Shown piece by piece: positions 45,655 to 50,906 of a DNA stretch of 64,000 nucleotides; within the stretch, counting starts at the first letter, position 1; each line of letters begins with the position of its first letter. The position numbers and the translations under genes are program-made. Source of the stretch: Candidatus Nomurabacteria bacterium (GTDB taxonomy: Bacteria; Patescibacteriota; Minisyncoccia; Phycocordibacterales; UBA9973); the NCBI GenBank assembly GCA_052035195.1, contig JBPOHU010000001.1, forward strand, positions 104,031 through 168,030. The letters run 5' to 3'. The notes below the pieces were generated by a model that did not search any database, was not told the DNA's origin, and saw only the letters and a list, made by a program, of their open reading frames with translations.

Positions 45655-45981
45655 ATGAGAGTCTCAAAATACAAAAATGATATCGTTGGCTTATTTGCAA
45701 ATAGTCACACTTTAAACATCCAAGCTATTTTTGAAAAATTAGGCAAGCCTGATTTCTCAACAGTGTTTCGTAATGTTGAGCAACTTTGTTCTGAAGGAAT
45801 CCTAAAGAAAATAGTAGTAGATTTAAAAACAGTAGTTTATGAACTAGCTTCTCATGCTCATGGGCATTTTATTTGTACAAATTGTAAAAAAGTCTCTGCT
45901 ATAGATATAAAAATACCAAAAATAAAAGAAGGTACACCTTCTGATATTACTCTTTACGGATCTTGCCAAAAGTGTAAATAA
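45655..45981 (+). CDS. Fur-family metalloregulator (short)
   Basis: wHTH N-terminus, HAHGHFICTNCKKV and C-terminal CQKC metal-site pattern of Fur/Zur/PerR. Confidence 0.6.
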   Translation: MRVSKYKNDIVGLFANSHTLNIQAIFEKLGKPDFSTVFRNVEQLCSEGILKKIVVDLKTVVYELASHAHGHFICTNCKKVSAIDIKIPKIKEGTPSDITLYGSCQKCK

Positions 45982-46977: not shown

Positions 46978-47006
46978 AAATAAAAAACTAGCATTTCTGC
47001 TAGTTT
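46978..47006 (-). terminator. intrinsic terminator of the ABC transporter (minus)
   Basis: Minus-strand read: AACTAGCA-gaaa-TGCTAGTT followed by TTTTTATTTT. Confidence 0.55.
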
Positions 47007-47011
47007 CGTTT

Positions 47012-48781
47012 TTAATTAATTGCAAGACCTTTTTGCCATAAAACATTAAATTGTTTATTAGATGACAAAAGATCACTGAGAGTTCCAGCGCCTACAATTC
47101 GTCCCTCGCTAAAGAAATATATCTTTTGGAATAAAGGGAGCAAATGAAGACGATGGATAGTTGAGATAACTGTTTTACCTTCAAACTCTTTAAAGATGTT
47201 TTTATAAACCTCCATTTCAGTAGCAGTATCTAAACTACTTGTAGGTTCATCGAGTAAAACAATATCTTTGTTATGACTAGCAAGAAGACCTCTTGCTAAA
47301 GCCAAACGTTGTTGCTGTCCACCACTGAGATTAACACCTTTTTCTTTGATAGAGGTGTCAAACTTTTTTGGTAATTTATCAGCAACCTCAGTAAAGCAAG
47401 CCATGTCGGTATACTTTTTAACAAAATCCATTTCATATTCTGCTCCTAATGTAATATTTTCAATTATTGTAGTTGCAAATATTTCTGGATTTTGTGGCAC
47501 CAACGAGATTGCCTGACTTATACTCTCAAAACCATCAGATAAATCTTGCCCATCTACTTTTAAATGAATACTTTTTGGGCAATATAAATCCCTAACAACC
47601 TTTAATAAGGTTGTTTTACCACTTCCTGTTTCTCCAACAAGTGCAATGTGTTCACCTTTTTGTATAGACATAGAAATGTCTTCCAGGTGTAACTCGCAAG
47701 ACTCTTCATTGTGGTAAGAAAAATTAAGATTTTTAATTTCCAACTGTTTCCAATCTTTAGGTAATAAATGATTGGTAAAGTTTTCTATCTTAAAATCTTC
47801 TGTTAATTCTTCTGAGTTAACTACCTTGGCCTTACGATGCAAAGTGTCTCCGTACATGCTAGTAAATTTAAAAAATAATTCACTAACCCTGCCTAGATAA
47901 TTGATAAGAAGATAAACACTTCCTACCAAAACACCTTGTGTAGTTCCTATGTGTTGCCAAAAATAAACAGCCAAAACGATTACTGTCATACCAGAGCAAC
48001 ACATATTTGTCAGAAACCATTTAAGTTCAACCAAGCGATTGTTCTTTTTGAAGAGTTCATACGGCTTTTCTACCTTGCTAGCAATAGCGCTAAAGACCAA
48101 TCTTTCAACCCTAAGAATGATAACTGTTGTGATATTACTAATAGCGTCAAAAACACTTTCAGAAACATTATTTTCATAACGATTCAGTTGTTTATATTGA
48201 TCGATAATAACTCGATCAAATCGCATAGTTATCCAAATACTTATCAGTATCATTCCTAGTACAATAAAAGATGACGAGGGACTAAAATAAATAAGCATAG
48301 CGTAGCTTACAACAAACTGTACAATTGCTGAGATAACTAAAAAAGAATTCTCAGAAAATGAATACAGCCCGCTCGCTCCTTTTTCTATTCTATCTATCGT
48401 ATCTCCCGAATGATGGTCAACGTGCCACTCCATAGGAAGCGACATTACTCCTTTCAACAAGTGTTTTCGATAACTTGCCCTAGCCTTAAAAGCATTAATA
48501 CGCTCTATAAGCCTAGCAGGACCATGGAACCCCCAAAATAGTACATCGATAAGTACAGTGAGGGACAAGAGCGTCAGAAGTAAACCAATATTTTCTTTTG
48601 TAATTCCTTGCTTGGTAATTACATCAATTATCTTGGCCCATATTATAGGACCAGGAACTAACTCAACTATATTTGCTGTGATAAACATAGCCCAGTACAG
48701 TACAATTTTACTTTTATTACCGTCTGAATACTGCCATGTTTTTCTAAGCAAATAGGAGAGTGGGTTTTGATTTTTTCTCAT
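47012..48781 (-). CDS. ABC transporter, fused permease/ATP-binding protein (MsbA-like exporter)
   Basis: Six-TM N-terminal domain; Walker A GETGSGKTT, signature LSGGQQQRLALARGL, Walker B VLLDEPTSSLD. Confidence 0.8.
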   Translation of the reverse strand: MRKNQNPLSYLLRKTWQYSDGNKSKIVLYWAMFITANIVELVPGPIIWAKIIDVITKQGITKENIGLLLTLLSLTVLIDVLFWGFHGPARLIERINAFKARASYRKHLLKGVMSLPMEWHVDHHSGDTIDRIEKGASGLYSFSENSFLVISAIVQFVVSYAMLIYFSPSSSFIVLGMILISIWITMRFDRVIIDQYKQLNRYENNVSESVFDAISNITTVIILRVERLVFSAIASKVEKPYELFKKNNRLVELKWFLTNMCCSGMTVIVLAVYFWQHIGTTQGVLVGSVYLLINYLGRVSELFFKFTSMYGDTLHRKAKVVNSEELTEDFKIENFTNHLLPKDWKQLEIKNLNFSYHNEESCELHLEDISMSIQKGEHIALVGETGSGKTTLLKVVRDLYCPKSIHLKVDGQDLSDGFESISQAISLVPQNPEIFATTIIENITLGAEYEMDFVKKYTDMACFTEVADKLPKKFDTSIKEKGVNLSGGQQQRLALARGLLASHNKDIVLLDEPTSSLDTATEMEVYKNIFKEFEGKTVISTIHRLHLLPLFQKIYFFSEGRIVGAGTLSDLLSSNKQFNVLWQKGLAIN

Positions 48782-49019
48782 ATTTTTTTATTTAGTTGTG
48801 AAAAGAACATTTTTATTGCTCAACAAAAAATTCCAGCTTCTGCCGAGCTGGAATTTCTGTAGTAAAAGAGAAACTAAAAGCTAGGCACAAACCTATTGTT
48901 GGCGTCAAAAGAGACGAGGAAGGTGAGTTGACCCTTCCAAGGCATTCGCGCGATGTATTGGTTTGTATTGCTTTTTTTCATAACCCTTTGATAATAGCAT
49001 ATTTTATAAAAATGTAAAG
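48782..49019 (-). promoter_or_regulatory. promoter (TTTACA-N17-TATTAT, minus) and ~200-nt structured 5' UTR with an attenuator-like hairpin+U-tract
   Basis: Minus-strand read: hairpin AATTCCAGC-tcggcagaa-GCTGGAATT then TTTTTTG ~40 nt before the start codon. Upstream candidate P1 ACAAACC/GGTTTGT encloses a GGAAGG...CCTTCC hairpin. Confidence 0.45.
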
Positions 49020-49070
49020 AATAAGTAAAAAATCACTTAATTTTATTGGCTAGAATGTACAAAATAATGT

Positions 49071-49192
49071 TTGACAAAACACTCTAAATATGCTATTATA
49101 TAAGTATAGTTCTTTGAGATGTTTTAGTTGGTTTTCCAGAGCATTCTTTCTACCAGACAAAAAGTTTTGGTAAACCAATTAAAATTTAGTTT
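49071..49192 (+). promoter_or_regulatory. promoter plus conserved leader, copy 2
   Basis: TTGACAAAACACTCTAAATATGCTATTATATAAGTATAGTTCTTTGAGATGTTTTAGTTGGTTTTCCAGAG...GTTTTGGTAAACCAATTAAA matches copy 1. Confidence 0.7.
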
Positions 49193-49363
49193 ATGAAATA
49201 TTTAACCCCTGTTGGTATTTTTTTAATTTTTTCGTTTATCGTAATATTCATTGTTGCGGCAGCTACGAAAAATTTTTACGCTTTCGGTTTTAGCGAATTG
49301 TGCGCCCTGGCTGGTATTGCCTGTGTAGCAAAAGCAAACAGAAAAGAAAAAACACCGGCGTAA
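49193..49363 (+). CDS. 56-aa small membrane protein
   Basis: Hand translation MKYLTPVGIFLIFSFIVIFIVAAATKNFYAFGFSELCALAGIACVAKANRKEKTPA. Followed by terminator GCCTTCTCC-aaaa-GAGGAGGCTTTTTTT (49385-49413). Confidence 0.35.
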   Translation: MKYLTPVGIFLIFSFIVIFIVAAATKNFYAFGFSELCALAGIACVAKANRKEKTPA

Positions 49364-49445
49364 TGTACCCACAAAAAATACAAAGCCTTCTCCAAAAGAG
49401 GAGGCTTTTTTTATTGCCTTTTTTATTGTAAAATACACCTTATAT

Positions 49446-50906
49446 ATGGCATCGCTAGAAGAGCTCCGAGAGGAGAGACTAAAGAAGAAAGCTATTCTCG
49501 AGGAGAAAGGCTTTGATACTTATCCTGCAAAGACTGAGCGTACTCACACTATATTTCAGTTCAAAACCCAATTTGAAGCTCTTGCAGAGAGCAAAGAACA
49601 AGTAACTCTAGCTGGGCGTATCATGAGTGCTCGTGGACAAGGAGCCCTAGCTTTTTCTGATATTTTTGATGGATCAGGAAAGACACAGCTTTTCTTGAAA
49701 AGTGACGAGATGGATGCGGAAGCTTATGCACTCTGGAACGAAACTACCGATGTCGGAGATTTCGTTGAAGCAACAGGTATTGCATATATGACAAAAAGAG
49801 GCGAACAAGCTCTATTTGTCTCTGGGTGGCGCATGCTTACCAAAAGCCTTCTTCCTCTTCCTGAGAAATGGCACGGCATCACTGATCCAGACGAGAGATA
49901 CCGCAAGCGATACCTAGATATCCTCACTGATTCAGAACTCCAAGATCTCTTCTACAAGAAGTCACAATTTTGGGAAGTCACTCGCAACTTTATGAAAGAA
50001 GCTGGTTTTCTAGAAGTAGAAACTCCAACAGTTGAAGTAACTACCGGTGGAGCAGAAGCCAATCCTTTCAAGACACATCACAACGACTTTGATATCGATG
50101 TCTTTATGCGTATCTCTGTCGGAGAACTCTGGCAAAAGCGATTAATGGCTGCAGGCTTCGCCAAGACATTTGAAATAGGACGCGTATATAGAAATGAAGG
50201 CTCAAGTCCTGACCACCTCCAAGAATTCACCAATATGGAGTTCTACTGGGCTTTTGCTGACTACCAAATGGGTATGGACCTTGTAGAGCGACTATATAAG
50301 AAAATAGCAGTGGACGTATTCGGCAAGACTGAGTTCACAACTCGCGGACATACTTTTGATCTCGGAGCAGAATGGAAGAAAATTGATTACGTAGAGGAAG
50401 TAGAAAAGCAAACAGGTATCAATGTACTCGATGCATCTGACGAAGACATGAAAGCCAAGCTCGATGAACTCGGTGTGAAATACGAAGGTGCAAACAGGGA
50501 ACGCCTCACTGACACACTTTGGAAATATTGCCGAAAGAATATCTCTGGTCCTGCATTTCTCGTACGCATTCCAAAACTCGTCTCACCGCTAGCAAAAGCA
50601 TGTACTGATGATCCAAGAGTAACAGAAAGATTCCAAGTTATGCTTGCCGGAAGTGAAGTAGGGAATGGCTTCTCAGAACTCAATGACCCTATAGACCAAC
50701 GTGCTCGCTTTGAACTCCAACAAAAGCTCATAGAAAGTGGCGATGAAGAAGCAATGATGCCTGAATGGGAATTCGTAGAAATGCTAGAGCATGGCATGCC
50801 ACCTACTTGTGGCTTTGGCTTCGGTGAAAGACTCTTTGCATTTCTTGTAGACAAACCACTTCGCGAGACTCAACTCTTTCCACTACTTAAGCCTAAGAAT
50901 GAGTAA
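49446..50906 (+). CDS. lysS: lysyl-tRNA synthetase (class II)
   Basis: N-terminal OB anticodon-binding domain; class II motifs including FRNEG (IGRVYRNEGSSPDHLQEFTNME) and GFGFGERL. Confidence 0.9.
   Translation: MASLEELREERLKKKAILEEKGFDTYPAKTERTHTIFQFKTQFEALAESKEQVTLAGRIMSARGQGALAFSDIFDGSGKTQLFLKSDEMDAEAYALWNETTDVGDFVEATGIAYMTKRGEQALFVSGWRMLTKSLLPLPEKWHGITDPDERYRKRYLDILTDSELQDLFYKKSQFWEVTRNFMKEAGFLEVETPTVEVTTGGAEANPFKTHHNDFDIDVFMRISVGELWQKRLMAAGFAKTFEIGRVYRNEGSSPDHLQEFTNMEFYWAFADYQMGMDLVERLYKKIAVDVFGKTEFTTRGHTFDLGAEWKKIDYVEEVEKQTGINVLDASDEDMKAKLDELGVKYEGANRERLTDTLWKYCRKNISGPAFLVRIPKLVSPLAKACTDDPRVTERFQVMLAGSEVGNGFSELNDPIDQRARFELQQKLIESGDEEAMMPEWEFVEMLEHGMPPTCGFGFGERLFAFLVDKPLRETQLFPLLKPKNE

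Follow-up and report, generated by a model that had tools for sequence, protein, structure and literature searches.

In this work, we examined the leader of a gene for an ATP-binding cassette (ABC) exporter, on the minus strand of a 64,000-nt stretch of DNA from a Candidatus Nomurabacteria bacterium; the whole stretch is referred to here as the window, coordinates are positions in it, and leader elements are read on the minus strand. Our results indicate that this leader is probably a ribosome-mediated transcription attenuator, in which a short leader open reading frame (ORF) and four RNA segments would control the monocistronic exporter gene. What is demonstrated is the ORF, the three pairings of the segments (by folding and covariation), and their mutual exclusivity. 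The original prediction had seen here the layout of a transcription-attenuation riboswitch or leader of an efflux pump; the attenuation leader finds support in a conserved terminator, a long-range helix (P1), and an antiterminator, while the riboswitch is not supported, given blank searches of Rfam, a P1 interior that differs in sequence between subfamilies, and the conserved ORF, so that the original interpretation is partly supported. The layout suits a leader-peptide attenuator, an option that had not been considered then.

Shared architecture of orthologous leaders

The exporter gene (48781..47012, minus strand) encodes a half-size transporter of 589 amino acids with a transmembrane and a nucleotide-binding domain (Pfam ABC_membrane and ABC_tran), which agrees with the exporter that had been predicted downstream of the leader. 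Reaching orthologous loci through this protein, we took upstream regions from about 60 of them and obtained about 36 non-redundant leaders, from metagenome-assembled genomes (MAGs) labelled Paceibacterota and Saccharibacteria. These follow a common plan: a promoter of the sigma-70 type with an extended -10 element is followed by a near-leaderless ORF of 27 to 49 codons, P1 joins the first and last codons of the ORF (about codons 3 to 8 with about the last 6), a small hairpin carries the stop codon in its 5′ arm, and a G+C-rich hairpin with a U tract and one to three copies of GTTCTTT precede the ABC gene. A comparison of leaders across orthologous transporters had been proposed along with the original prediction, and it revealed a structure maintained through compensatory changes. 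Between subfamilies, the terminator stems have no sequence in common, with at least seven unrelated stem sequences at the same position (examples are AAUUCCAGC, CAGCGUGCC, AACGCCGCG, GCGCCGCGGA, AAUGCCUUGC, and AUAUCCUGU), indicating that the structure is conserved and not the sequence.

The relatives that form a clade with the window leader (WIN) are, by identity of the ABC protein, L071 (96%), L068 (81%), L069 and L070 (77%), and L072 (71%), and their leaders can be aligned with it. A covariance model built from ten leaders of group A finds those of group B with E values of 3e-9 to 6e-3 and with boundaries at the ORF ATG and the terminator end. For the window leader, the same model gives a weak match of 9.4 bits (E 0.026 in 601 nt), the boundaries of which are exact (48981..48825). 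The window leader is tied to groups A and B by the shared architecture and this one weak match. In group C (L004, L013, L033, L038, and L045), a conserved structured element of ~70 nt is inserted between the promoter and the leader ORF (L004:200-312, L013:2619-2731, L033:847-959, L045:2174-2286, and L038:502-614). Its stem, GAUUGCCCGG/CCGGGGCAAUC, surrounds a GGUCC-GAAAG-GGCC hairpin and an AUAAAA bulge and has three compensatory pairs, and the element has no match in Rfam.

The leader is not present in orthologues from bins outside the candidate phyla radiation (CPR) that are labelled Chthoniobacter, ‘Acidobacteria’, and Bdellovibrionales. At least one close CPR orthologue of the ABC protein (L034/L074, 68% identity) has neither the leader ORF nor the terminator and carries a promoter and a short untranslated region (UTR) directly after mraY; the attenuator is thus lost, or was never gained, in some lineages.

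Promoter and leader ORF

The promoter scan placed a -35 hexamer, TTTACA, at 49018..49013 and an extended -10 box, TGCTATTAT (TGC-TATTAT), at 48999..48991, with the hexamer TATTAT at 48996..48991. The promoter matches the consensus at 10 of 12 positions, has the TG extension, and is among the two best matches in the 3.5 kb scanned; both hexamers lie where they had been predicted, and the spacer is 16 nt by the scan instead of the 17 nt first given. At the same -35 place, the relatives in the window clade have TTGACT or TTTACA, and ATGCTAnTAT is invariant in the alignment of five sequences from this clade, with variable flanks. Transcription would start about 7 nt past the extended -10 (near 48984), so that the mRNA may begin at, or 2 to 4 nt before, the leader AUG.

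The leader ORF (MKKSNTNQYIARMPWKGQLTFLVSFDANNRFVPSF, 48981..48874, from the ORF list) has 35 codons and ends with TAG (48876..48874), 15 nt before the terminator stem (48858). The region had been described as a 5′ UTR, which is only partly correct, as this ORF was overlooked. Its ATG (48981) lies 9 nt after the -10 hexamer, which leaves a predicted 5′ UTR of about 0 to 4 nt, and in 28 of the 36 orthologous leaders the -10 hexamer ends 7 to 10 nt ahead of the leader ATG. An ORF is open at the same position in all 36 non-redundant leaders and ends 15 to 40 nt before the terminator stem. The chance of such an open frame is ~0.12 per locus in composition-matched shuffles, the two off-frames hold 57 and 78 stops across the same spans of the 36 leaders, and the ATG is invariant in the aligned orthologous leaders.

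A start of this kind is common in the window, where 46 of 50 genes with long ORFs have no Shine-Dalgarno (SD) sequence (4/50 are SD-like) and a TAnnnT hexamer resembling a -10 box ends 5 to 12 nt ahead of the start codon in 25 of the 50. This suggests that SD-independent, leaderless initiation is the rule in the organism and makes the near-leaderless start of the leader ORF ordinary in its genome. In the SD-using genomes of group A, such a start is a special property of the leader.

Terminator-state fold

The 209-nt leader folds to a minimum free energy (MFE) of -53.4 kcal/mol, compared with -38.5 ± 3.8 for shuffled sequences (RNAfold; z -3.92; 0/200 as good), and P1, an inner hairpin, and the terminator are all part of the MFE structure. 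The 5′ strand of P1 (AAAAGC..UACAAACC, codons 3 to 8, 48975..48960), here called segment 1, appears in the MFE and centroid structures and is the anti-antiterminator strand, and the 3′ strand, segment 2 (GGUUUGUG....GCUUUU, 48893..48876), covers the last six codons and overlaps the 5′ strand of the antiterminator. The central hairpin domain within P1 (48951..48918) has an outer helix, GCGCGAA (48951..48945 with 48909..48902), and an inner one, both in the MFE and centroid structures. Two helices of the original prediction reappear in this fold, namely ACAAACC/GGTTTGT in P1 (48966..48960 with 48893..48887) and GGAAGG-N9-CCTTCC as the inner hairpin (48938..48933 with 48923..48918).

The intrinsic terminator (48858..48825, from the terminator scan) consists of a 13-bp stem (48858..48846/48838..48826), a 7-nt loop, and six U residues (48830..48825). 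A 9-bp version of this hairpin, AATTCCAGC (48855..48847) and GCTGGAATT (48837..48829), had been noticed at the outset and can be extended to the 13 bp, and its T run, which overlaps the 9-bp stem by two bases, is followed by G as described. The ABC ATG (48781) stands about 43 to 44 nt past the T run, in agreement with the ~40 nt first estimated. The 5′ arm and the loop (AGAAAUUCCAGCU CGGCA, 48858..48841) form segment 3, which has either the antiterminator strand or segment 4 as its partner. Terminator-like sites in the scanned region number 8, against 2.0 expected, with the leader hairpin among them.

By energy, the segment 1:2 duplex of the window leader reaches -18.1 kcal/mol (z -4.07, 0/200 shuffles), and the terminator alone reaches -16.9 kcal/mol (z -2.97). 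Within the window clade, 85% of the P1 cells are paired, the outer central helix is 97% paired with three compensatory pairs, and the inner hairpin is 70% paired. The terminator state of this clade as a whole is 85.8% paired, against at most 54% when the partner strand is slid, and has five compensatory pairs; the terminator stem of L068, for instance, has a compensatory change from U-A to C-G. The terminator state is 79.6% paired in group A (at most 47.7% slid) and 84.9% paired in a covariance-model-based alignment of 15 leaders from groups A and B (at most 44.7% slid), where it has 19 compensatory pairs and was equalled by 0/500 shuffles. In groups A and B, terminator cells are 91% paired with seven compensatory pairs, and the helix homologous to P1 has eight pairs with compensatory changes. 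P1 is supported in the window leader by the duplex test and in group A by the aligned structures, and in groups B and C the pairing is not significant in the duplex test.

A P1-closed domain of this kind could also be an aptamer. As a metabolite-binding riboswitch, P1 and the hairpins that it encloses would bind a ligand that stabilizes P1 and sequesters segment 2, so that the terminator forms. The enclosed domain is indeed well folded (-27.9 kcal/mol, z -2.98), P1 and the central helix have compensatory changes, and group A has a few positions that stay unpaired and do not vary. We nevertheless regard a riboswitch as unlikely. The Infernal scan that had been suggested as a check found no Rfam family matching the window leader or 20 orthologous leaders at any threshold: with Rfam 15 in gathering mode, tRNAs alone passed in the whole window and the 20 orthologous loci, and in E-value mode the best score in 48500..49500 was at most 23 bits, compared with gathering scores of 33 to 119, with no meaningful match on the leader. 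The sequence enclosed by P1 is unconserved between subfamilies, the central hairpin being of unrelated sequence outside the window clade's own subfamily, and the group A model gives the window leader no more than the 9.4 bits mentioned above. Moreover, an aptamer predicts neither the avoidance of stops in 36 of 36 frames nor an ATG 9 nt after the -10 hexamer, nor a stop codon that is maintained, as UAA or UGA, in a hairpin that covaries, and a P1 stabilized by a ligand would turn the exporter off, which is the wrong sign for an efflux pump.

Antiterminator and mutual exclusivity

When the 3′ arm of the terminator is removed from the leaders, the 3′ end of the ORF pairs with the terminator 5′ arm in a long antiterminator, and the fold includes a hairpin at the stop codon. 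In the window leader, the 5′ strand of this antiterminator (UGCC.AGCU...AGUUUCU, 48887..48869) comprises the last three sense codons, the UAG, and 5 nt beyond it, with GCCUAGCU as its stretch at 48887..48879. The helix has three parts, UGCC/GGCA (48887..48884 with 48844..48841), AGCU/AGCU (48882..48879 with 48849..48846), and AGUUUCU/AGAAAUU (48875..48869 with 48858..48852). Cells of the antiterminator in the window clade are 98.6% paired, against at most 51% with a slid partner, and L069 changes GCC/GGC to GUU/AAC, which amounts to two compensatory pairs.

For the 13 leaders of group A (alignment A1), RNAalifold yields the antiterminator itself as the consensus. In this group, the antiterminator is 94.1% paired (at most 43.7% slid), with a covariation of 0.206 against at most 0.063 and with 0/500 shuffles as good, and in the alignment of groups A and B, which was fitted to the terminator state, it is still 91.6% paired (at most 44.1% slid). 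An alignment-free duplex test of segments 2:3 in the 36 leaders gave a mean z of -3.1, with 78% of the leaders at p<=0.05.

The two folds share individual bases. One column pair of the group A antiterminator alternates between U-G (7 sequences) and A-U (5 sequences); its varying base, which is also the second one in a Val/Asp codon, covaries with the terminator 3′ arm (G-C in 7; U-A or U-G in 5), which means that a single position serves both pairings. The middle base of the stop codon likewise covaries with its hairpin partner in group A, as A-U in eight leaders (UAA) and as G-C in four (UGA), and the stop hairpin is otherwise almost invariant in sequence in groups A and B.

Selection on the leader ORF

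An ORF that always adjoins an ABC exporter could also be a gene of its own. Its product would be an exported peptide, a bacteriocin, or a partner of the transporter, with a leaky terminator to balance the amounts of peptide and transporter, an arrangement known from many bacteriocin operons. The corresponding ORF of L075 was annotated by a gene caller, and the partial NCBIfam matches of the ABC protein include bacteriocin and type I secretion exporters. The pattern of change in the ORF points elsewhere. Minimum changes in group A are spread evenly over codon positions 1, 2, and 3 (36/36/38), and the window and L071 ORFs differ by one 3-nt indel and by eight synonymous and five non-synonymous codons. 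The 3′ end of the ORF is in a different frame in L069 (through a 1-nt deletion), L024, and L045 while its nucleotides still align. With no bias for codon position and an unconserved C-terminal frame, it would be the act of translation that matters and not the peptide, which argues against a secreted peptide and also against an arrest peptide that depends on its sequence. Apparent peptide motifs (IMSQ, EWHVV, LRCVLS, and RFVPSF) are encoded just where P1 and the antiterminator have their strands. The leader peptide has no Pfam match, the exporter has no C39 peptidase domain, and no modification or immunity genes lie nearby in the loci compared. As a conserved and covarying antiterminator would also be superfluous for a plain leaky terminator, we consider a separate peptide gene very unlikely. 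A lasso-peptide or bacteriocin reading of the leader peptide was rejected as well, given that there are no maturation genes and no selection at the amino-acid level. Selection appears to act on the RNA helices and on a frame that is open, can be translated, and ends at the right place, and this fits a regulatory leader ORF.

The composition of the ORF is skewed near its start. Across the orthologous leaders, Asn occurs 90 times in codons 2 to 16 (48934..48978 in the window leader) against 41 expected from nucleotide composition (z 8.4, a value inflated by the relatedness of the sequences, in a region that is also a helix strand). The same codons are G-poor, with 29 Met against 6 expected and almost no Asp or Glu. 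The excess of Asn and Met could reflect regulatory codons, or it could be a by-product of the G-poor helix strand and 5′ end.

The GTTCTTT motif

Sequence conservation revealed a motif in the spacer that leads from the terminator to the ABC start codon, GTTCTTTTCACAA (GTTCTTT, 48808..48796), which is present in 30 of the 36 orthologous leaders in one to three direct copies spaced 9 to 11 nt apart, with the last copy followed by (C/G/A)ACA. Carriers at the same position include L005, L008, L011, L012, L042, L053, and L061, and the rest of the window shows no enrichment of the motif (32 matches, 23 expected). Many MFE folds from SD-using genomes have it paired with the SD sequence of the ABC gene, but a role as an anti-SD element is not general, as the window genome is nearly devoid of SD sequences (the 4/50 genes above) and keeps the motif.

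These repeats, or the near-invariant stop hairpin of groups A and B, could be bound by a protein or a trans-acting RNA that selects the terminator or the antiterminator, the ORF being incidental. In favour of such a factor are the conservation of the motif in sequence and its direct repeats, together with that hairpin. However, GTTCTTT comes after the terminator, which leaves it no way to affect the decision to terminate co-transcriptionally. None of the known leader families in Rfam (T-box, RAT, PyrR, TRAP, and others) was matched, no regulator gene is conserved beside the locus, and the conservation of the ORF would be left without an explanation, all of which makes a trans-acting factor highly improbable. 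The motif itself is unexplained by the attenuator model, and a protein may still act on it.

The exporter gene and its surroundings

The ABC gene is followed by its own terminator (47007..46984, minus strand, from the terminator scan), a 10-bp stem and then TTATTTTG, and it is therefore a monocistronic unit. The protein reached no equivalog cut-off in NCBIfam, where the best model was a glucan exporter (204 bits against 733), and its best matches of solved structure, by sequence, were ABCB1 and ABCB4; judged by these comparisons, it is what we would call a generic half-size exporter. Relatives at 55 to 81% identity come almost all from MAGs labelled Paceibacterota/Parcubacteria, Saccharibacteria, and similar CPR groups, and the G+C content of the window is 36%. 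The neighbours of the ABC locus (lysS, dnaJ, an acetyltransferase, and others) vary between loci.

It is also conceivable that nothing is regulated here, and that the ORF and the hairpin are an independent terminated unit or an RNA stabilizer, with the promoter of the ABC gene in the 44-nt spacer. Leaderless starts are seemingly widespread in the window genome, and some orthologous spacers hold TTGACA within GTTCTTTGACA. As an ABC promoter, this sequence was rejected, since its key base varies (C, G, or A) and no -10 element stands at a fixed distance. The promoter scan was blank between 48825 and 48781, and the covarying antiterminator would be left without a role, so that of all the explanations considered here, we find this one the least credible.

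On the other side of the leader promoter, a divergent promoter on the plus strand (49071..49099) bears an extended -10 element identical to that of the leader promoter (AAATATGCTATTAT). It is followed by a hydrophobic ORF of 56 amino acids (49193..49363, plus strand) and a strong terminator (49382..49408, plus strand), 38 nt ahead of lysS (49446). This arrangement is probably not an attenuator of lysS, since the product of the 56-amino-acid ORF is hydrophobic and lysS seems to be served by a TAAAAT box of its own, 11 nt ahead of its ATG. About 1 kb past the end of the ABC gene, the opposite (plus) strand carries a gene for a Fur-family regulator (Pfam FUR, E 6e-13; 45655..45981).

Proposed mechanism and signal

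In the attenuator that we propose, segment 1 is codons 3 to 8, segment 2 the last six codons, segment 3 the terminator 5′ arm and loop, and segment 4 the 3′ arm and U tract. Pairing 1:2 is P1, pairing 2:3 the antiterminator including the stop-codon hairpin, and pairing 3:4 the terminator. With no ribosome on the leader, 1:2 would form and sequester segment 2, 3:4 would form as well, and transcription would stop near 48825. Once it has arrived at the UAG, a ribosome would cover ~48891..48864, which is segment 2 and the whole 5′ strand of the antiterminator, and not the base of the terminator (48858), so that 3:4 would again form and transcription would stop. A ribosome delayed in the first third of the ORF would instead mask segment 1 (48975..48960), leaving segment 2 to capture segment 3 before segment 4 is made, and RNA polymerase would read into the ABC gene. 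With read-through upon an early delay of the ribosome, the switch would report slow translation of the leader. The terminator is stronger than the antiterminator, and the P1 domain folds to -27.9 kcal/mol, a ranking that a default-off attenuator needs.

Several points weigh against this mechanism. All of the evidence for it is computational, and the 3′ end at the terminator, the translation of the ORF, and the inducing signal are predictions. The antiterminator of the window leader is modest (-13.5 kcal/mol, z -2.16) and not significant in the duplex test (z -0.4), and its support comes mainly from the two compensatory pairs of L069. The sequences used for covariation are related, so the shuffle control overstates their significance; the slid-partner controls are fairer, and they are clear. 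Inside P1, AAUA and UUGG are invariant in group A yet unpaired in the model, which an aptamer predicts as well. The leader ORF holds no run of regulatory codons of the kind found in amino-acid attenuators, and in group C the ORF is neither leaderless nor SD-led, which makes its translation there uncertain.

As for the signal, our preference is a conjecture drawn from analogy, in which general translation stress, such as that caused by ribosome-targeting antibiotics in the bmrB-bmrCD system of Bacillus subtilis, may be sensed. We rank second the shortage of a single aminoacyl-tRNA, for which Asn is the candidate given its about two-fold codon excess, and something else third.

Significance and comparison with known systems

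CPR bacteria (Paceibacterota and relatives) are almost entirely uncultivated, and a conserved leader with two alternative, covarying folds leads to a concrete hypothesis, accessible to tests in vitro or in a heterologous host. An answer would show how CPR cells sense the status of translation and when a widespread ABC exporter is needed. The leader would also show that in genomes like these, unannotated short ORFs that start directly at a promoter can have a regulatory role.

A far-reaching extension, which we hold to be doubtful, is that the leader founds a CPR-wide family of regulatory RNAs. Its members would be attenuators with a (near-)leaderless upstream ORF (uORF) whose Asn-rich first dozen codons sense the charging of Asn-tRNA or translational stress and switch on an exporter-fold ABC transporter, with the GTTCTTT repeats as a second layer of control. 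If true, this would be, to our knowledge, the first regulatory RNA family of these uncultivated, host-dependent bacteria, and it would hint that the transporter serves nutrient or stress physiology instead of housekeeping export. In the literature that we searched, no paper was found that links Patescibacteria with transcription attenuation.

Among known regulators, terminating riboswitches also have a P1-closed domain followed by an expression platform in which a terminator and an antiterminator compete. Unlike those in Rfam, the leader described here has an ORF as its domain, conserves no core resembling a ligand pocket across subfamilies, and matches no family.

The classical amino-acid attenuators of Escherichia coli (trpL, hisL, and pheL) have four segments that pair as 1:2, 2:3, and 3:4. 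As in these, the ORF overlaps segments 1 and 2, and from the position of the stop codon, a ribosome that terminates there would block the antiterminator. In contrast to them, the family of the window leader has no run of codons for a single amino acid, only the ~two-fold excess of Asn near the start, and the regulated gene is a transporter and not a biosynthetic operon. The Phe and Thr leader models of Rfam gave scores at chance level, located on the other side of the intergenic region.

A regulatory ORF whose start is at the 5′ end of the transcript or directly beside it, on which the first ribosome loads as the RNA emerges, also has a counterpart in the mycobacterial leaderless polycysteine uORFs, which sense cysteine through consecutive Cys codons (bioRxiv 10.1101/834739). 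The window leader differs from these uORFs in that its terminator is a canonical intrinsic one and its ORF lacks a run of regulatory codons, and it belongs to another phylum.

The nearest counterpart in function is bmrB-bmrCD of B. subtilis, a ribosome-mediated attenuator of an ABC exporter in which bmrB has to be translated (Reilman et al. 2014, PMC4191407) and ribosome-targeting antibiotics raise read-through into bmrCD (PMC4191407). The model proposed for it has the same trp-type logic as ours. Both systems have a short ORF ahead of an ABC exporter, with a terminator, an antiterminator, and an anti-antiterminator, and in both slow translation of the leader favours, or would favour, read-through. 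The bmrB leader has 53 codons, a 5′ UTR of ~70 nt, and a terminator inside the coding region, whereas the window ORF is shorter (35 codons) and near-leaderless, and its stop codon precedes the terminator by 15 nt. The BmrCD transporter is a heterodimer, while the window has a single half-transporter gene, and no sequence relationship between the two leaders is apparent. Induction by antibiotics is established for bmrCD and is a conjecture for the window leader. The class of mechanism has long been known, an ABC exporter under such control is known from bmrCD, and what is new is a leader family absent from Rfam 15. As the mechanism is classical, the value of this leader lies not in a new principle but in a new family and its phylogenetic setting.

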